From assembly GCA_030390025.1 (NCBI GenBank), contig CM059425.1, positions 155,124,001 to 155,188,000 of the forward strand: a stretch of DNA of 64,000 nt, given 5' to 3'. Position 1 is the first letter of the stretch; the number at the start of each line of letters is the position of its first letter. This stretch comes from Squalus acanthias (lineage: Eukaryota). The translations under genes and the position numbers were made by a program. Positions 8,678 through 61,574 of this stretch are shown piece by piece. The notes under the pieces are model-generated. The model saw only the letters and a list, made by a program, of their open reading frames with translations. It did no database searches and was not told the origin of the DNA.

Positions 8678-9312
8678 TTAGAGTCCAGGATCTGACCTCA
8701 GTTTTCCTAGGGCTCTTTGGTGCCATACTCAATCAGATGCTGCCTTGATGTCATGGGCAGCTGTCTTCTGACATTCAGCTTCTTATCTTCATGTCTGGAT
8801 CAAGACTATGATGAGATCTGGAGTGAAATGATTTTAGCAGAACCCAAACTGAGCATTGGTGAGCAGGTTATGGGTGAGTAAGAACTGTTTGATGGCACTA
8901 TTAATAACTCCTTCCATCACTGTGTTGATGAATGCAAGGAGGCCAACAACATGGTACAGGAAACTCTCGTTTAAACGGCACCTAAATATCCGGAATTCTC
9001 TATTAACCAGCAAAAATCTTACACCGAAAACTCCTCTCAAATAACCGGCAATGTTGCCGAGTCCGAGTCTCCCGCGAACGCCGAGTTAGTCAGTGGGGGT
9101 AGTTCTCCAAAGTGCCACTACTCGGCTTCCTGGCGCTGTCGGAAGTCCGAACACTGCAATAACAGGAGTCTGATTCTCCCGCGCTGCCGGGAGTCTCTTC
9201 TGATCGTCCATTTTACTGTGTGCCTCCCACGCTGCTGGTAGTCTCTTCCTAGCCACCATTGTTCTGTGTGTCTCTCCATCTTTATCGGGAATTATCTCCC
9301 CCATCTTGCATT

Positions 9313-11512
9313 ATGGAATTCCCAAAAGCTGGTCCAAGCAAAAGGAAGAGAGTGGTCTTAACTTTGAAACAGAAAATCGAGATATGCCAACGACTAGAAA
9401 GGGGAGAGAAGCGTATCAACATTATGAATGAATTCAAAATCGGTTCGTCAACAATCTACGACATCAAATCGCAGAAGGATAAGCTGCTCAAGTTTTATTC
9501 AAGCTCGGAGACATCTAAGAGTGTAGAGAAACGGCATACACTTCGTAAGCCTAAGCTTGAAGAGCTGGATACCGTGCTTTATGAATGGTTTTCTCTTAAG
9601 CGTTCAGAGGGTGTTCCAATTTCCGGACCCATGCTAATCGAGAAAGCGGAGGATTTCTACGAAAGGATGGAGCTCACTGACAAGTGTGCTTTCTCCGAGG
9701 GATGGCTAACGTGCTTCAAGTTACGGCACGGGATACGACGACTCGATATTTCCGGGGAGAAGAAATCAGCTGATCACGACGCCGCAGAAGAATACTGCGA
9801 TTACTTCAATCGGATTGTGCAGCAACATGATTTGTCGCCAGCACAGATATATAATGCCGATGAAACTGGCTTGTTTTGGAGGTTTTTGCCAGAATCAACG
9901 CTTGCTGGGGCTAGTGAGGCTAATGCTTCAGGTTACAAGAAAAATAAACATCGTGTAACCGTGCTAACATGTGCGAACGCTGCTGGATCACACCGGGTTA
10001 AACTTCTTGTTATTGGGAAGTATAAAAATCCCCGTGCATTTAAAAATGTGAGGCACTTGCCTGTTGAGTACAAAGCTCAAAAAAATGCTTGGATGGATAA
10101 GGAAATAGAAACATAGAAACATAGAATCTAGGAGCAGGAGTAGGCCATTCGGCCCGTCGAGCCTGCTCCACCATTCAATACGATCATGGCTGATCATCCA
10201 AATCCAGTACCCTGTCCCTGCTTTAATCCCCGCAGTACACATATCCCACTACCCCCGTAACCCCACGTATTTAATTCCCCCTAACATATCCCATCCTATC
10301 CCCATAACCCTACATATTTAATCCCCCCTAACACTAAGGGTCAATTTATCATAGCCAAATCAACCTAACCCGCACATTTTTGGACTGTGGGAGGAAACCG
10401 GAGCACCCGGAGGAAACCCACGCAGACACGGGGAGAATGTGCAAACTCCACACAGACAGTCACCCGAGGTCAGATTCGAACCCGGGTCTCTGGCGCTGTG
10501 AGGCACCAGTGCTAACCACTATGCCACCGTGTTGCCCATCTTCTCCGATTGGTTCCATCATATTTTTGTTCCATCTGTGAGGGAACATTTCCGTAAAATA
10601 GGGAAACCTGAAGATAGCAAATGCATTTTATTGCTTGATAATTGTAGAGCCCATCCGCATGAATCCGAGTTGGTTTCGGGAAATATTTTCACCATTTATT
10701 TGCCACCAAATGTAACTTCTCTCATCCAACCCATGGACCAGGGCGTTATCCAAAATCTGAAGTGTCATTACACGAAAGACTTTCTACGTAAACTGATAAG
10801 CCAAGATGACAATATTCACGCATTTCAGAAGGAATACAATATTAAAGATGCCATCTATAATGTTGCATGTTCCTGGAACTTTGTGAAAGGTCACACTCTG
10901 AGGCAAGCCTGGCACAAATTGTGGCCTTCTGTAATGTTTGCTGAAGGTTCTTCTTCAGAGGAGGAATTTCATGGGTTCAATGTTCGTCCCAAGAAGAGTA
11001 CAATAATGGAAATGGCTGGCATGGTGAAAAATGCAGGCTCAGCAAACCCTCTACGTCACCTCAGTGAAAGTGATATCGAGCAGTGGGTTGATGCAGATAG
11101 AGAAGTTGGTGTTGTGCATATGCTAAGTGATGATGAAATAATTGAGAATGTTTTGAATCCAAAGAAAGAAAAGGAAAGTGAGATGGAAAGTGAAGAAGAT
11201 GATATTTCTGAAGAGAACAAGATTTCTTGGGCTAAAGCTGCAGAAGGATTTTCTTCAATCCTCAAATTTGCTGAAAGGCAGACTTGCTACTCTGCCCAAG
11301 AAGTTATGCAACTCCATATTCTGCATTCCACGTTTCTACAGAAAAGGCAAGAGTCCACTAAGCAAACCAACATCCGCAACATGTTTAAGAAAGCTTCCAA
11401 AAGAGTCAAAGCAGCGGAAGTGCCTGAAGAATCTGTGGAATCTGTGGAAATGCATGATCCTGCTGACCCAGCTGGCACGGATATTCCTGATGAACCAGCT
11501 GACTCAGAATAA
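9313..11512 (+). pseudogene. Tigger/pogo transposase (CENP-B-type HTH + DD32D), interrupted by a SINE
   Basis: [65 protein letters not shown]. Joining 9313-10104 to 10538-11512 gives a stop-free 588-aa frame (..WMDKE|IFSDWF..). Confidence 0.93.
10107..10537 (-). mobile_element. tRNA-derived V-SINE (HE1-like) with CR1-type tail
   Basis: Minus strand: tRNA-like head ggtggcatagtggttagc...ggttcgaatc, V-domain gtgtggagtttgcacattctccccgtgtctgcgtgggtttcc, (tttctatg)n tail; near-identical to 56210-56648. Confidence 0.93.
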
Positions 11513-30865: not shown

Positions 30866-31436
30866 CAATAGCAAAATACTGCGGATGCTGGAAATCTGAA
30901 ATAACAACAGAAAATGTTGGAAACATTCAGCAGGTCAGGCAGCATCTGTGGAGGGAGAAAAACAGTTAGCGTTTCAGGTCGATGACCCTTCGTCAGAACT
31001 GGAAAAAGTTAGAGATGTAACAGATTTTTAAGCAAGTGTAGGGGCAGGGAAAGGGAGGAGGGGAGAAAAGAACAAAAGGGAAGGTCAGTGATAGGATGGA
31101 AGGCAGGAGAGATTAAGAGACAAAAGGGATGATGGTGCAAGGCAAAAGAAGATGGTAATGGAACAAGTTAAGAAACAAGAGATGACTCTAGATGAGGTGT
31201 AAATGGCAATGGCAGAATTATCAACAGCTGCCATGTGAGAAAAAATAAATAAAAATAAAATGAAAAAAAATAGGGGCAGAGGTTATGGTCTGAAATTGTT
31301 GAACTCGATGTTGAGTCCGGAAGGCTGTAAAGTGCATAATCGAAAGATGAGGTGCTGTTCCTCGAGCTTACGTTGAGCTTTGTTGGAACAGTGTAAGAGG
31401 CCGAGGGTGGAGAGGTAAGAGTGGGTGTGGAGCGGT
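30866..31436 (-). mobile_element. Penelope-like element 3' fragment (GIY-YIG C-terminus + terminal repeat with hammerhead)
   Basis: Manual translation LGLLHCSNKAQRKLEEQHLIFRLCTLQPSGLNIEFNNFRP* (stop 31283-85); TSD atgtga(a/g)gta at 30856-65 and 31437-46. Confidence 0.88.
30963..31001 (-). ncRNA. Minimal type I hammerhead ribozyme motif, cleavage site mutated
   Basis: cagtt-CTGACGA-agggtc atc gacct-GAAA-cgct-aactg: stems I and II present; GCT where NUH is expected. Confidence 0.75.
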
Positions 31437-48465: not shown

Positions 48466-51400
48466 TTACCACATTCTCCCTCCATTTCGTAGCCGCTGGA
48501 CGAGGGAGAGCCGCACCCGTTTGGGTTCTCGTAGCGGTAGAGGGCCCCTAGCCCGTTTACCCGCCGCAGGCCGTGGACCAGAGTCCGAGTGATCCAGCCC
48601 GCTCTGTGAGGGGTCAGGACGATCCTGACTGTGTACTGGTGCCCGAACGGGTGTCGGGCAGGGCTGTGGCAGATCCGTTTCCGAGCGTATGGTACGGGGT
48701 GGATCGTGGCTGCGCGTGCGAGCCCCGACGGGCTCATAGTCAGTCTGCCCCAGGTCGGCACGCTGGAGTGAGGTACCAGCCGGCGTCAGATCCAGATTGT
48801 GATGAGAGGCACCTGGCGAGCCCAGAGATGTGCCTGGTACAATATCATCCCCTGGTGTCCCTCTATGTTTCGGCGGGCAGGGAGCCAGATCCCGCAATGA
48901 CACGGTAGATTCCCGACCGTCAGGATACCGAATATAGGCGTAGGTAGGGTTGACGTCAGTGAGCTCAACCTCATCTACCAGGGGGTCATTCTTAGACGCC
49001 CGAACATCTCTTCGGAGTAGCACTGGTCCCGGTGCAGTCAGCCACGACGGGAGAGATATCCCATAGGATGAGCGACGCTGAAATCGGAAGAACCGTTCAT
49101 GAGGCGTCGTATTTGTGGCAGTCGAAAGGAGGGACCGTGTGGAGTGTAATGCGTCTGGAAGTACTGCTTCCCATTGCTGGTTGGGTAGGCCCCGAGATCT
49201 CAAAGCCAGACGTACCGCATTCCAGATGATAGCGTTAAAACGCTCGACTTGCCCATTCCCGACCGGATGATAAGGCGTCGTTCTGCTGGCAGCAATACCC
49301 CGTTCCGAGAGATAGGCCTTGAGTTCTCCTGACATAAAAGAAGGGCCCCGATCCGAATGAACATAGGATGCCATGCCACAGAAAGCAAATACCTGCTCAA
49401 GGCAGCTGATAACCGTGGTCGTCAGCATATTGGGGCAGGGAAAGGCAAACGGAAAACGGGAATACTCATCGACCATGGTCAATAGATAAGTGTTGCGAGT
49501 TGAAGAGGGCAACGGCCCCTTAAAATCGATGCTAAGCCGTTGCATTGGCTGGGTCACATGTATGAGTATACCACCCGAGGGGCGGAAAAACTGAGGTTTC
49601 AATTCCGCACAGACTCTGCAGTCCGAGCACATCTTCTTTACATCCCCGGTAGAGAATGGGAGATTTCGGGACCGCACGAAGTGTAGCATGCGAGTAACGC
49701 CCGGATGACACAACCCATCATGGATGTCTACGAGCGTAGAGGGTGCCATGGCGGAGCAGAATGCTCGTGTGAGGGTATCCGGAGCCACATTCTCCTTGCC
49801 AGGTCGATAGTGGATGGTGTAACCAAAAGAGGCCAATTCCAGCCGCCAAAGCTGGATTTTATTATTTTTAATTTTGGTCCGTTTTCGATTATCGAGCATG
49901 AAGGCGACCGATCACTGGTCCGTGATTAAGGTAAAGTGCTGGCGAGCTAGGAGATGACTCCACTTCCGTACTGCCTCTATGATGGCTGTAGCTTCTTTCT
50001 CGACTGGAGGATAATGTAGCTCAGCCCCTTGAAAAGTCCTGGACAAAAATGCCACCGGACGACCTTCCTGATTCAGAGTGGCCGAGATCGCCACCTCCGA
50101 GGCATCACACTCAACAACAAAAGGAAGACTCTCATCGATGGAGTGAAGAGCCGCTTTCTCCAACTGTTTTTTCAGGAGGTTAAAGGCTGCAACAGCCGCT
50201 GTGTCTAGTGGGAATGTGCTGGCCTTCAGTAGAGGTTGGATTCGGTCCGAGAAGTTAAGAATCCATTTAGCATAGTATGCAAACAGGCCGAGGGCCCGGC
50301 GCAAGGAGGCCGGATTCTTAGGTGGCGGGAGTTCTTGGAGTGGGCGAAGCCTTTCAGGGTCAGGTTTAATGATGTCATTGCCCACACAGTAGCCAAGGAT
50401 GTTGATGGTTGGTTGTGACTCAATGGATTTAGCCGCATTTAATGTCAAATTACGGTGCTGGAGTGCATCCCAAAATCGTTGGAGATTGGCGTCATGTTCC
50501 CGCTGATTGCGACCTGCGACAGTAATATTGTCCAGATAAGGAAACGTATCCTTTAAGTCTTCCTGTTTGACCAGGTCATCCATTGCTCGCTGGAAGACAG
50601 CCATTCCATTAGTGACCCCAAAGGGGAGGCGACGAAATTGATACAGCCGTCCATTGGCTTCAAAGGCCGTATACTGCTTGTCTGAGACCTTCAAGGGTAC
50701 CTGATGATAGGCACTTTTCAGATCATATGTTGAGAACACCGTGTACTCAGCCAGTTTATTAACCATATCATCGATGCGCGGCAATGGGTATGCGTCCAAG
50801 TCCGTATATTGATTGATGGTCTGTGAATAGTCAATGCACAGCCGTTTCTTGTGAGGTTGTAGAGGGTTCTTAACAATAACGACCTGGGCGCGCCATGGCG
50901 ACGAACAAGGCTCGATGATATCCTCTGCTAAAAGCCGAGAAATCTCAGCCGCAATAAAAGACTGGTCTTCCTGACTGAAACGTCGTGACTTTGTTATAAT
51001 CGGTTTGCATCGAGGAGGGATACTGGTAAACAGTGAGGGTTCATCCAGTGAAGCTGCTGACAATGCACAGAACGGTAATCGAGGTCGTATATTAGAAATA
51101 GTGAGTTCAGGTTTGGATCCGCCGAACTCAATGGTGAGCTTCTTATGCTGCTTTTGAAAATCTAGCCCTAAGATAAGATCACTACATAAGTCCTTGAGCA
51201 CTGAAAGCCGGGTGGAGGGATACCTGTGACCATTAAGTATTATTTCAACCATACAAAAGCCAGAAATTCTGGTATTAAGTGATGACTGAGCCATCGCAAT
51301 TGCCTGGTCCGATGGGAAAACATGTAGCTTTAACTCTGCAACAATCTGTTCCCTAATGAAACTATCAGTGCTACCTGAGTCAATTAAGGCATCTAAAGTA

Positions 51401-52416
51401 TGTCCATTAATTGATGCTTTTGTAGCTGCATGGAATAGGTTCTGAGGACAAGCAGCTGTAATTGGTGTCGTTGCACAAAGAGTGGCTGAAACTCTAGGTG
51501 TGTTTCTTCGAGAGAAAACCCGAGAGGAAGCATGATAGATTTTAGCCGGAACATCTTGATAGGCCCTTACCGGGGCAGTTCGGTAGGACTTAGCTTGATA
51601 AGCCCTCGTAGAGGCTCTTGATAGGCAAACCTTTGCAAAATGACCCTTTTTGTTGCAATGACTGCAAAACGCATTGCGAGCAGGGCAGAATTTCCGAGGG
51701 TGAAACTCATCACCACAAAAGAAGCATTTCTTAGATTGCCAAGAGGCTGCCACAGTGGGGTCATCATCCTCTTCATCAGTGAAGTCATCAGATTGATCGT
51801 CAGGGATAAAGTCCTCCCTAATAGAGTTCACCTGTGGCCTCTTAAATTGCCTGACTGTAGTTAAGGCAGCAGACCGAGGTCTGGGCACTGTATAAAGGTC
51901 TGCATTTCTTTTTGCCAGATCTAGAGAGCAAGCCATGTCATAAGCTCTCTGAAGCTCAAGTGTCTTACTTTCCAGTAGACGCTGGCGTATAAATGGGGAG
52001 GCAAGCCCGCAGATGAAAGCATCACGGATCATTTCTTCACGGTACAGCTCAGCTGAGGCCGCCTGAAAGTTACAGTCCATACTAAGTCTGCGAAGCTCTT
52101 GGAGGAATTTATCAATGGATTCCTCCGGCCCTTGTTGGGCTGTAGCTAGTAGATGTCTGGCATAGACCTCATTCGGTGTCTTAGTATATAGTCTTTTAAG
52201 CATCCGAATTGCCTCCTCGTAACTGCCCCATTCCTCCACATACTGAAATACATTCGGGGTGACACAGTTGATGAGTATCCGCAATTTTGAGTCATCATCA
52301 GCCTTGCAATATTCGAGAAAATTGTCAAACGTGCGATACCAGTGTTTCCACACCTTACCGGCTGCTGGGGTGTTTGGGTCCAAGTCAAGACGCGATGGTT
52401 TAAGGATGTTTTCCAT
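48466..52416 (-). pseudogene. Gag-Pol polyprotein, single frame with one internal TGA at 49912-49914
   Basis: Two CCHC knuckles (CFFCGDEFHPRKFC, CSHCNKKGHFAKVC), protease LIDSGS, RT LPFG and YLDN, RNase H CDASE/EKEA/ITDQ*SVAFM, integrase HHCC and IDF-SDRG-VERFN. Confidence 0.95.
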
Positions 52417-52482
52417 GATGGGTGATTCCCTGGATCCTTAGTTCCGAGTTCGTCCAAAAAGTTTGAGTGCGAAGTTTTTCAA

Positions 52483-55890: not shown

Positions 55891-56108
55891 TGTGGCCTGG
55901 AATTTCCTGGAATGGAGCGTTTGGCCCTGATCACCATAATTTTGAGCCTTGTGCTCCCTGATCCTCCAGTAACAAATTTACGGCAAGAGAACCAATTCCA
56001 ATATGTGAATTATTAATTAGATTAGCGAGTCAGAAGTGACGCAGCTAATGTCCGATACACATTCAAGGGGCTGGGGCTGGGGCCAGGGCCGGACATAGAA
56101 TGGAACAG

Positions 56109-56672
56109 CTGGAAAAACTCAGCAGGCCAGGCAACATCCGTGGAGAGAGAAACGGATGTTGCCTGGCCTGCTGAGTTTTTCCAGCGTTTTCTGTTGTTAT
56201 TTCGGATTTGGCAACACGGTGGCATAGTGGTTAGCACTGGTGCCTCACAGCGCCAGGGACCCGGGTTCGAATCTGACCTCGGGTGACTGTCTGTGTGGAG
56301 TTTGCACATTCTCCCCGTGTCTGCGTGGGTTTCCTCCGGGTGCTCCGGTTTCCTCCCACAGTCCAAAAATGTGCGGGTTAGGTTGATTTGGCTATGATAA
56401 ATTGACCCTTAGTGTTAGGGGGGGATTAAATATGTGGGGTTATGAGGATAGGATGGGATATGTTAGGGGGAATTAAATACGTGGGGTTACGGGGGTAGGG
56501 TGGGATATGTGTACTGTGGGGATTAAAGCAGGGACAGGGTACTGGATTTGGATGATCAGCCATGATCGTATTGAATGGTGGAGCAGGCTCGACGGGCCGA
56601 ATTGCCTACTCCTGCTCCTAGATTCTATGTTTCTATGTTTCTATGTTTCCAGCATCCGCAGTATTTTGCTAT
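56109..56672 (+). mobile_element. Short fold-back Penelope-like insertion, itself interrupted by a SINE
   Basis: 15-bp TSD catagaatggaacag (56094-108, 56673-87); 33-bp perfect inverted repeat 56109-141 / 56152-184; 3' end matches the family at 30866. Confidence 0.85.
56210..56648 (+). mobile_element. tRNA-derived V-SINE (HE1-like)
   Basis: Near-identical to 10107-10537. Confidence 0.93.
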
Positions 56673-58919
56673 CATAGAATGGAACAGGTTATGTAGACTT
56701 TCCGCTTTGGGCGCAATCGGGAAATTGCACCCAAACTGCGCTGGTTAGGCTATGATTCAAATTTCCGCTAAAATTCATTTGCATAGTAACAAACGTAAAA
56801 TCTTTTATGAACCAGCACAATCTGGCAGCGTAATAGAACGTGATCATTTTTTTTCTTTCCATTATAAAGTAATCCGTGATATATTTAAGAGCGGTAACCT
56901 GGTGCAGCTTTATTAATACAGCTGAAAATGGGATTATCACCCAAAATAAGCATTTTTCATAAGTGTGTCCTGTCCTCCACCTGTGAGATATCTGATTTAA
57001 AATCACTCAACCATTTAATAGTTTAATTGGGGTACTCTAATCAGCTTCTTAATAAATTAAATATTTTTTGATAGGAAAAATCATTTGAAACGTGGCTACT
57101 AGTGCATGTGCAACTAAGAAAATGAGCGCAATTTTAATAGACTTTCTGAACCAGCGGAATCTCGCAATTTTGACCTGGGGGCGTGGCCAGGTTTGTGGGC
57201 GGGGCTTGATTCGGGCCAATTGAATCTTGAAACCAGCGTAAAAGACGAGCGTAAGTGGTTTTGGCCGAAACTCACTTACGTTTAAAATTCCCCGATCTTT
57301 TGCTTTGGTCTGGCTGAATCTGCTCGGATTGCGCTGATATTACTAGCAGAAACCCAACCCCGGGTTATTTAGCGCTTCCCTAAAAGTAAGAGCTCAACAA
57401 TTTGTGTGGTTTTCCCATTTTCATATTTTACTTGAGTTGATTATAGAGTTAGTTTTTTCATATTTTGTAATTATTTCTCGTTGCTTATAATCGGGCAGTA
57501 CGAGCGGGCGCCAGTCTGCTAAAATAAGAGCCGCTCATTATTGTTGCAAATCCCGGTGTCTGTTTAATTTCTCTTCTGACCGTCTGTCTTGTCAGTAAGA
57601 AAACCCAGTGAGATCACATTTATGTTCCACGTTCAGAACCTGTTCTGTGCAATTCCAATTCCAGTGAATTAGTTCATTGAAAGTGACAATCAGTCTTCCT
57701 TTTCCATGGCCCGTTTTTGATTTAATTTACCTTCAGTTTTCATTTAAGAGCTATTATCGGCCTGTAGGTTGTCAGTGAGTGGAATGGGTTGAATGCCTTG
57801 CAGCCGATGCACAATTTGATTTAATTATTATCACAATCAAATGCTGGGGACACTTGACTGACCCTGCATTTTGTGAAAGTGACACAAAATGTTAGTTTCA
57901 AAAGTGATGCCGCCTAGTAAAAAGCTTCTTCAGTAGTGAAACACATCAAACTGAACAACCGAGTCACTCAGGATTAGCCGTTGTACTGATTACACAGCTC
58001 CCTTGGTGTAGAGCTGAGGAAATAGACTCTACCCAACTTAATCGATACTTTTGATAGAGGAAATGGTGGAAACCATCGAGGTAGAAATTCATCTGAGCCC
58101 ATTTTTGGGCCCAGAATTGCTGGTGCTGGGGCTGCTGGAAGGCCCGAGGCTGGCCACAAATGGAGCTTTGGGCCTCATTTCCATCATTTAGGTGAGCTGT
58201 CAGTGCCTGCCATGCCTCCACAGGTAACTCACTCCTTTCAGCAGATGAATTTCACATCAGCCACCTCGCTGGCAGTGGCCCTCGGGTAAGTCCTGGAGAG
58301 TGGGGAGGAGAAGACAACAGGAGGGGGCCGCTCGCGGGTCAGCAGCGGCCCTCAGGAATGCTGTGCAGCTGGAAGGAGCACTCTTCCTCTGTCTGGCTAC
58401 ACGTCAACCAATAAAGAACAAAAATTGCCGGCCCTTTCGGTGGCGGCCGCTGGCTCGGCCACATTCACACCTGGAAAACCTAAGTGGAGCAGGCCCAATA
58501 TGAAACATTTTCATTTGTCAGCAGGTCATAACCAACCCCTCCTCACTGCTGCTTCCCAGTGTCATCCTTTCTCTTGTCGACAGAAGGATGAAAATGTCAT
58601 GGGGTATAGGCTTCTCCATGGTAAGCCAGCAAGAGATCATTTATGTGGAGCAAGAAAAACCTAGTCCTATTAACTTTTCCTCCCTCTTGAGATGGAGCTA
58701 GAGCAATCTACTGCCACACAATAACTCCGACTGTCAACCCAGTAGAGAACTGGTGTGCTTCATCCAACTAAACAAGCAAGCTTAAATTCCAGTAAAAGTT
58801 GGAATCCAAAGACTCCGATATTTACTGGGGTGCGTCGCATAGGCGAGAGGGAGGAGTTTTAATTGATCCGGGTTTTCCCGCAACTGTGGAGATTTAACTC
58901 CACAGTGTGCGTCTTTTTT

Positions 58920-59424: not shown

Positions 59425-60282
59425 AAAATATCTACTGCTAAAGACTCTTAAGTGTTAGCAGAACAGAAAATGACTGGTTTTCCCACATCACCTGAAGAGA
59501 TATCTAAACACTGAAGTATTATACACGGAAATAGAACTGAACTTTGTGCGTGCAGCATGAATGATAATGTCTGGAGGACAACTGTCTCTCTCAGAACTAG
59601 GCCGTCTTTCCAGACATCTACGTTGACTTAGACAAGGTTTCTTAGGCTAGAAATAGGGATATTGAACCTAATCCACAGAAATGCATAGCAATCGTTAATT
59701 TCAGTGACGGTTTTAACTTTAGGTAGTAACAGTAAGCAGTAAGTAATATTTTAACAGACCCAAAATATTTAATGCATGGCGAATTGTTAGTTCAAGAGGA
59801 AGTATTGCCATCAGTACCCCTTTTAAAATTCAGTTGTGAAAAACCATTAATATCATGGTTTATCTGTATCATTTGTAATTTTTTTTTAATAGTTGCTTCT
59901 AACTGTATTATCAGAGGAACTATCTTGGGATAGTTACTGAAGCCAATAGTGTCAGGAAGCCCAGTTAACAACAATAGAAATATTGTGGCCAACAATTTTT
60001 TTTTTTAAAAAGGAAAAGCATGTTTTTCACCAATGTGAACAAACCATTAGCAAAACGAAAATGTGTGACTTTAAAATGCATTCAATATATAAATCTAAAC
60101 AAGAAGAATAGTTCCTTGGGCATGGTGCCACTGCATTACGATTGTCCGTGAAACTCTATCCCCGCATGAATTACCTCTTTAAGATAAGAGGAGGAAAGGG
60201 AACAATGAAAAAAGGTGTTTTATCAGTTAAGAGGTAACTGTGTGTAATTACTGACTGTCTATTTACTGCCTTAATGATCCCA

Positions 60283-60465
60283 AAAATGAGAAGTCGCACA
60301 ACACCAGGTTATAGTCCAACAGATTTATTTAATTTTACAAGCTTTCGAAGCAGTTCGCTCCTTCGTCAGGTAAGTTAGCAAATTAAATAAATCTGTTGGA
60401 CTATAACCTGGTGTTGTGCGACTTCTCATTTTTGTCCACCCCAGTCCAACGCCGGCATCTCCACA
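60283..60465 (+). mobile_element. Short fold-back Penelope-like insertion with hammerhead in the loop
   Basis: TSD ttaatgatccca (60271-82, 60466-77); 54-bp perfect inverted repeat 60282-335 / 60380-433. Confidence 0.88.
60335..60373 (-). ncRNA. Minimal type I hammerhead ribozyme motif, core intact
   Basis: ttac-CTGACGA-a-ggagc gaact gcttc-GAAA-gctt-gtaa: stem I, stem II, palindromic aagctt stem III, CUU site. Confidence 0.8.
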
Positions 60466-60576
60466 TTAATGATCCCAGACAGACTAATCCATGGTTGATT
60501 ATTAAACCTGTGGTGCTTCAGTTTCAACTCCGCATGTTAATCCAGCTCAATTAGTTAATGACAATTCTTCATAATA

Positions 60577-61574
60577 CCATTTTGGTAAGAAGAACGAGGA
60601 GAAGCAATGTAAACTAAAGGGTACAATTCTAAAGGGGGTGCATGATCAGAGAGACCTGGGGGTATATGTGCACAAATCGTTGAAGGTGGCAGGGCAGGTT
60701 GAGAAAGCAGTTAAAAAAGCATACAGGATCCTGGGCTTCATAAATAGAATTGAGAGGTCGCACAACACCAGGTTATAGTCCAACAGTTTTATTTGAAATC
60801 ACAAGCTTTCGGAGCTATCGATTGCCCCTTCCTCAGGAAGGGGCAATCGATAGCTCCGAAAGCTTGTGATTTCAAATAAAACTGTTGGACTATAACCTGG
60901 TGTTGTGCGACCTCTCAATTTTGTCCACCCCAGTCCAACACCGGCATCTCCGCATCACATTCATAAATAGAGGCATAGAGTACAAAAGCAAGGAAGTTAT
61001 GATGAACCTTTATAAAACACTGGTTCAGCCTCAACTGAAGTATTGTGTCCAATTCTGGGCACCGCACTTTAGGAAGGATGTGAAGGCCTTAGAGAGGGTG
61101 CAGAAAAGATTTACAAGAATGGTTCCAGAGATGAGTGACTTCAGTTACGTGGATAGACTGGAGAAGCTGGGGTTGTTCTCCATGGAGCAGAGAAGGTTGA
61201 GAGGAGATTTGATCGAGGTGTTCAAAATCATGATGGGTTTAGACAGAATAGATAGAGAGAAACTGTTCCCATTGGTGGAAGGGTCGAGAACCAGAGGACA
61301 CAGATTTAAGGTGATTGGCAAAAGAACCAAAGGCAACATTCGGGAAAACTTTTCTACGCAGTGAGTGGTTAGGATCTGGAATGCACTGCCTGAAAGGGTG
61401 GTGGAGGCAGATTCAATCATGGCTTTCAAAAGGGAATTGGATAAGTATCTGAAGGAGAAAATTTGCAGGGCTACGGGGAAAGGGCGGGGGAGTGGGACTA
61501 GCTGAAGTGCTCTTGCAGAGAGCCGACACAGGCTGAATGGCCTACGTCTGTGCTGTAACCATTCTATGATTCTA
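60577..61574 (+). mobile_element. CR1 LINE 3' part interrupted by a palindromic insertion
   Basis: FINRGIEYKS, RRLRGDLIE, RTRGH; attctatgattcta tail. Confidence 0.92.
60749..60959 (+). mobile_element. Short fold-back Penelope-like insertion (173-bp palindrome + 3' end)
   Basis: TSD ttcataaataga (60737-48, 60960-71); perfect palindrome 60748-60920 centred on 60834; same family as 60283. Confidence 0.9.

Follow-up and report, generated by a model that had tools for sequence, protein, structure and literature searches.

A hairpin with a hammerhead motif in its loop lies at 60271-60477 of the window, the 64-kb stretch of DNA analysed here, and raises the question of which kind of element left it behind. 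The original prediction described it both as a retro-insertion of the end of a Penelope-like element (PLE), with a target site duplication (TSD) and a minimal hammerhead of the dimer type, and as a copy of a ribozyme-processed short RNA, that is, a retrozyme-like unit. The locus, called copy 1 below, consists of the following parts, with element coordinates that count the first base past the predicted cut as +1.

60271..60282, plus strand: left TSD, 12 bp, AT-rich; its last 2 nt also match the element (junction micro-match), and it is single at the empty site of organisms B and C
60283..60379, minus strand: inverted piece of the element end, reading from +56 to -41 across the predicted cut, with the whole hammerhead within it
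60380..60432, plus strand: direct piece forming the second hairpin arm, element +4 to +56
60433..60465, plus strand: one-sided tail of 33 nt, 31 nt of it beyond the 55-bp stem; its end is a fixed terminus of the family
60466..60477, plus strand: right TSD, 12 bp

The insert proper (60283-60465) is 183 bp long and is bounded by an exact 12-mer with no extension on either side, in agreement with the TSD and insert length given before. Including the tail, the direct side spans +4 to +89, and the inverted arm runs from +56 to -41. The hairpin arms (60281-60335 and 60380-60434) are 100% complementary over 55 nt, within one of the 54-bp perfect stem originally counted, with 44 nt between them; the insert contains 53 nt of the arm, and the other 2 nt fall in the left TSD. 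The sense arm was said to start about 3 nt past the cleavage site, and it starts at +4 with 3 nt omitted. This description of the element was right, but the one-sided tail (60433-60465) and a second copy at 60737-60971 had been missed. The minus-strand fold of the hairpin was calculated at -107.7 kcal/mol (z -15.5), and 0 of 200 shuffles were as stable. A read-through transcript of either strand would be predicted to fold into a 55-bp duplex, as the claim of double-stranded RNA had it.

Public contigs from four runs (X2, X8, X9 and X17) were aligned to 59950-60620. One contig each from organism B (X8) and organism C (X9) joins 60270 directly to 60466 and skips 195 bp, the length of the 183-bp insert plus one 12-bp copy of the TSD; the flanks of these contigs are ~3% diverged from this locus. 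Among random placements, an exact 12-mer pair at this spacing (+-10 slack) was found in 638 of 200000, and it is the presence of the empty site in two relatives that settles the insertion. Because this empty site is exact in both, copy 1 is a young insertion. From organism A (X2), a 945-nt contig covers the left flank, the TSD and 24 nt of the arm with 0 differences. X17, which we guess to be an RNA run, yielded contigs on the element and none on the unique flanks, and is uninformative on the locus's own transcription.

The contigs also give a picture of the family. Over the four runs, 10684, 6898, 1653 and 1664 contig records were aligned, some of them on the LINE edge at the right. The summed contig depth in X2 rises to 4.2 million on the element versus 14.9 on the flank (~10^5-fold, which is not a copy number), and the family of copy 1 is large and high-copy. 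Loose ends whose onward letters are unlike each other are stacked behind 60465/60466 in all four runs (121, 349, 48 and 23 records); in X8 such ends are found also at 60426 (156 records) and 60289 (117 records), about +50. These pile-ups, taken from the 24 listed of 466 rows, imply that the family has two fixed ends ~35-40 nt apart. Directly beyond the tail end the consensus letters are ATG in all four runs, which, by its letters, may be the start of an ORF. One X17 contig contains a joint from 60466 to 60280, passing from the tail end through 27 other letters to the start of the inverted arm; it represents either two neighbouring stubs or a tail-to-tail layout at another place.

The hammerhead in the loop is composed as follows, all on the minus strand.

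60335..60373, minus strand: predicted minimal type I hammerhead, with features as in PMC4209133
60373-60370 with 60338-60335, minus strand: stem I, 4 bp
60369-60363, minus strand: core CUGACGA, with a bulged A at 60362
60361-60357 with 60351-60347, minus strand: stem II, 5 bp
60346-60343, minus strand: GAAA of the hammerhead core
60343-60340, minus strand: palindromic AGCU, then U17 at 60339
60339^60338, minus strand: predicted cut, after U17

The full CUGANGA/GAAA core that had been reported for the minus strand of the loop was recovered as CUGACGA and GAAA together with stems I and II. A strict minimal-hammerhead descriptor had 0 hits in 150 random windows (dinucleotide-type, same local make-up) and on the real window detected copy 1 and copy 2 only. 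In copy 2 and in the loose-end consensuses, stem II is preserved with differing loops. An Rfam search of the copy 1 hairpin yielded 0 matches at the gathering score; at E<=10 there were 21 matches, with no hammerhead family among them. The miRNA-precursor matches at this threshold were discarded, since their scores fell well short of the gathering cut-offs and they mirror nothing but the long hairpin.

Of the ribozyme described as intact, the letters are indeed complete, but it has a U at the cut, no stem III in the monomer and a predicted misfold. A U17 makes a poor cleaver in hammerheads. The copy 1 monomer has neither a helix III nor a loop 3. ViennaRNA models, which leave out tertiary contacts and protein help, gave stem II of copy 1 a probability of 0.11 alone and of 0.03-0.04 within the hairpin or dimer, and a competing off-register helix, which occupies G8, A9 and G12, a probability of 0.88-0.96. 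For the dimer, intermolecular AGCU pairing was modelled at 0.5 and its extension to A14-U17 at 0.44. The ribozyme of the anole PLE needs protein help according to PMC11167929. The copy 1 hammerhead is probably a passenger, and cleavage in this setting is unlikely. The off-register helix, a 5-bp helix at 60346-60365 (minus strand), is predicted to beat stem II in copy 1, and for the base responsible no alternative letter is listed in organism A, so that the helix may hold across the subfamily; it could serve as an off state. On the opposite strand, the antisense of the ribozyme start (60367-60375, plus strand) reads CAG/GTAAGT, the consensus 5' splice donor; judged by this motif, such insertions could supply cryptic splice donors to plus-strand transcripts.

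The window contains further elements of this kind.

60737..60971, plus strand: copy 2, same family but other subfamily, a 211-bp insert with a 12-bp TSD at 60737-60748 and 60960-60971
56094-56686: stub of fold-back type from a second PLE-like family; its arms (56108-56185) are 34 bp long and its TSD 14-15 bp
30866-31436, minus strand: non-inverted, 5'-truncated stub of the second family, inside a CR1-type remnant

Copy 2 lies 260 bp from copy 1, has 86-bp arms and a ~39-nt tail, and has inserted into a CR1-type LINE remnant; with copy 2 taken out, the remnant's reading frame continues through the site. It turns at a CCT-N-AGG micro-palindrome (a three-base inverted match) within the ribozyme core. 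Its arms both cross the predicted cut, with ends at -35 and -31, and its ribozyme is placed wholly inside the hairpin stem by the predicted fold. The 12-bp TSDs of both copies (60271-60282 and 60737-60748) are AT-rich and start with TT, and micro-matches of 1-2 nt to the element are present at the junctions. In the second-family hairpin (56094-56686), the tail is split by a tRNA-SINE-like insert of ~440 bp and the arms end near +9 and +19 of their own predicted cut. The non-inverted stub of that family carries a decayed minimal hammerhead at 30996-30967, and a short peptide upstream gave a weak GIY-YIG lead in the protein atlas (score below 0.9) with neither a Pfam match nor a homologue in the homolog search. 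The fold-back layout is common to three elements of the 64-kb window: copy 1, copy 2 and the second-family hairpin. The 88 stop-free frames (>=55 aa) examined around the locus and around 31 kb contained only LINE domains and one sub-threshold HAMP match, and no host exon was recognized. Elsewhere in the window, a pogo/Tigger-like transposase split by a 385-bp gap (9253-11512, plus strand) and long Gypsy-like gag-pol frames (48466-52437, minus strand) were named from their translations.

What was observed at copy 1 is a young insertion with a TSD from a high-copy family with two fixed ends and varied turns. Several published systems describe such a structure. A rotifer Penelope is described with an inverted pLTR next to it, a tail of 31 bp and a TSD of 9 bp, within a TSD range of 8-10 bp (PMC3846280), and an inverted, 5'-truncated copy with a one-sided tail of 30-40 bp is given as a general mark of PLEs (PMC8557442, PMC8969392). 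In work with the purified PLE protein of the anole, both strands of AT-rich DNA were cut and extended, and reverse transcription began at two internal positions, one at each edge of the tail; in vitro, ribozyme cleavage was unnecessary and the main template was unprocessed RNA (PMC11167929). For the minimal hammerheads of PLEs, PMC4209133 lists four marks and mentions dispersed truncated copies as well as pairs that lie 100-700 bp apart on opposite strands; a monomer showed no cleavage and dimers low cleavage (PMC4209133).

All four marks of PMC4209133 are present in copy 1. It further has an inverted, 5'-truncated piece next to a direct one from the element end, a TSD at a pre-existing site, a minimal hammerhead in the terminal repeat, and a one-sided tail (31-33 nt in copy 1, ~39 nt in copy 2) in a family with two fixed termini, as in endonuclease-positive (EN+) PLEs. 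The earlier assignment to an inserted PLE end with a minimal dimer-type hammerhead agrees with this anatomy and with the hammerhead marks. From the anatomy we infer PLE identity, and copy 1 is very probably a recent, abortive insertion of an EN+ PLE with a two-primer origin. Exact-pattern scans of viral, metagenome and prokaryote genome contigs gave 0 loci each, with no longer copy of the family and no Penelope RT/endonuclease ORF linked to it, which weighs against the PLE reading. The literature covered, with most subscription papers outside its scope, included no study dedicated to miniature PLE fold-back stubs of cartilaginous fish, nor one dedicated to arm ends relative to a hammerhead cut. 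The insertion pattern itself is already published; copy 1 is real, young and ordinary.

The inverted structure would form as follows. The element protein would cut an AT-rich target with a 12-nt stagger, and both target 3' ends would prime cDNA on the element RNA at two internal start sites. The bottom-strand cDNA would start at the tail end (+89) and stop early at +4, and the top-strand cDNA would begin at the inner site (+56), just past the left TSD, and stop early at -41. Joined head to head and then filled in, the two cDNAs would yield the inverted piece, the direct piece and the one-sided tail between the TSDs. The hammerhead would lie in the loop only because the longer cDNA crossed it on RNA that was uncut there, and the hairpin would be made anew at each insertion and not be a propagating unit. 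Two-site priming fits the family because its two fixed ends match the two reverse transcription start sites of PLEs, and since three of the four family arms in the window run through the cut, their template was uncut at the hammerhead or re-joined. A simple fold-back of a single cDNA was rejected, as each strand contains sequence absent from its first half: the second half of the top strand reaches +89, past its own start, and that of the bottom strand starts at -41, past where its first half stopped. In L1 twin priming, two target nicks prime two cDNAs that are joined head to head inside the TSD. Copy 1 resembles the resulting L1 5' inversions in the two nicks and the head-to-head join; the L1 pieces, however, barely overlap, whereas those of copy 1 overlap by 53 nt, which produces the hairpin and requires two passes over the same stretch of RNA.

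Other origins of the hairpin have to be weighed against this two-primer insertion. Self-priming or a template switch, on either an antisense transcript or a fold-back intermediate, might have produced the inversion instead of two target primers. Palindromes at inverted junctions were read as self-priming on an antisense template in PMC3846280, and copy 2 does turn at a micro-palindrome; but copy 1 has a 44-nt loop, with sequence on each strand that is uncopiable from its own first half, and the two start sites from which the anole protein extends both target strands account for the tail with no antisense RNA involved (PMC11167929), so we consider this origin decidedly unlikely. A fold-back chimera created by the assembly is hardly conceivable. 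The arms are perfect and no listed X2 contig crosses the turn or the right junction, yet the TSD is exact with a matching empty site in two relatives, the 945-nt X2 contig continues without differences from the flank into the arm, and three elements of the window have the same layout. A retrozyme-like or MITE-like non-autonomous unit, in which a PLE in trans would copy a short ribozyme-processed RNA as an entire hairpin, is very improbable. Animal retrozymes consist of head-to-tail units with type I hammerheads and are processed to circles (PMC7229834; bioRxiv 10.64898/2026.07.22.740005); they derive from pLTRs (bioRxiv 10.64898/2026.07.22.740005), and the complete hammerhead letters, the TSD and the lack of coding capacity of copy 1 would suit such a unit. 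Some joints between arms recur as well (X2 depth 169 vs 15 on the flank). Copy 1 is, however, a single inserted inversion and not a head-to-tail array with at least two consecutive complete hammerheads; the next hammerhead, 467 bp away, belongs to a separate insertion with its own TSD, and with no head-to-tail unit there is no second ribozyme to free a monomer. Its hammerhead is minimal and not a canonical type I ribozyme with helix III and loop-loop contacts, two classes that are kept apart in PMC7229834, and the predicted fold buries the hammerhead core. Each copy has its own turn, with no dominant turn among the listed joints, the deepest of which (169 in X2, 409-612 in X8) compare with a family depth in the millions, although copy 1, being the reference, could not display its own turn as a joint. 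Copy 1 shares ancestry with retrozymes but lacks both features assessed. The retrozyme-like unit of the original prediction finds no support, given the missing tandem unit, the minimal hammerhead and turns that vary over 61 joints, and neither does the copying of a ribozyme-processed short RNA, given an inverted arm that reaches 41 nt upstream of the cut and the copy 2 arms at -35 and -31.

A further alternative keeps the two-primer mechanism and links the arm ends to the cut: the short arm would stop at +4 because the RNA was cut by the hammerhead (5' end at +1) and ~3 nt were lost at joining, and the longer arm would derive from uncut or re-ligated RNA. We regard this as unlikely. Compared with the cleavage site, the inversion breakpoints give evidence on both sides. 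The turns differ, with -41/+4 in copy 1, -35/-31 in copy 2 and +3 to +29 with +7 to +30 in the 15 joints listed of 61 across the runs, a biased sample. The sense start of copy 1 at +4 lies close to the cut, both arm ends are downstream of it in 15 of 15 listed joints (all 7 of those from organism A), among the 12 joints listed for organism B, out of 46, five are compatible with a sense start at about +5 but differ in the other arm, and the second-family hairpin ends near +9 and +19. Against this, the long arm of copy 1 and both arms of copy 2 cross the cut, and several of the +5 joints share 1-3 nt with the other arm, which a micro-match hot spot explains too. The reference is also unable to show sense starts far upstream, the other subfamily is clipped at +9, and short stubs would be expected to be commonest anyway. 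In organism A the contig depth of X2, a coarse measure, declines gradually across the cut, without a cliff or step: 1.48 million is reached at +3, against 0.94 million at -12, 1.15-1.34 million between -13 and -18, and 0.53 million by -34. Between +3 and -12 the depth falls from 31337 to 362 in X8, from 8553 to 490 in X9 and from 14680 to 1297 in X17 (11- to 87-fold); the variants in these runs differ from copy 1 between +1 and +8 as well as in the loop of stem II, and since they diverge there the alignments are clipped, which may or may not fully explain the fall. For the anole element, PMC11167929 found no reads that end at the cut. Going one step further, the short-arm start at +4/+5 could be a genomic footprint of hammerhead cleavage in vivo, in which two RNAs paired through the palindromic stem III of a dimeric ribozyme and bound by a protein dimer would template both cDNAs, with run-off at the new 5' end of a cut RNA. 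This idea is quite improbable; if true, the stubs, in their tens of thousands, would be a record of the frequency and timing of cutting by a PLE ribozyme during transposition, something that none of the studies covered has demonstrated.

The single locus, read as a two-primer PLE insertion, carries little weight, being transposition debris of a known kind. Its family, by contrast with the single copy, is a large natural sample of PLE insertion products. The arm ends of this family can test template cutting in vivo by the minimal hammerhead, a question left open in PMC4209133 and PMC11167929, and also whether two target primers build the inverted structure. Perfect hairpins of 50-90 bp, present in large numbers in a vertebrate genome, could also give rise to double-stranded RNA.

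Among known systems, copy 1 is like the non-LTR retrozymes described in PMC7229834 and bioRxiv 10.64898/2026.07.22.740005 in that it is non-coding, pLTR-derived and ~200 bp long, with a type I hammerhead and a long TSD. Unlike them it is not head-to-tail and has a single complete minimal ribozyme in an inverted layout with a tail. With the metazoan minimal hammerheads of PMC4209133 it shares the bulged nucleotide between 9 and 10.1, the G10.1-C11.1 pair, the palindromic 15.2-16.2, the short helix I and the lack of helix III, as well as the occurrence as dispersed single copies and in nearby opposite-strand pairs. Copy 1 differs from those described there in its U17, a G-U pair in stem II and the competing off-register helix, and its helix II has 5 bp compared with 7-8 bp in the minimal hammerheads of Schistosoma (PMC4209133). 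Relative to published EN+ PLE examples, copy 1 is far shorter (183 bp, no ORF), and its TSD of 12 bp compares with 8-10 bp in rotifer Penelope (PMC3846280). Its head-to-head inverted and direct end pieces, one-sided 30-40-nt tail, TSD, AT-rich target, heavy 5' truncation and two fixed family ends are those of the EN+ PLE insertions described in PMC3846280, PMC8557442 and PMC11167929.
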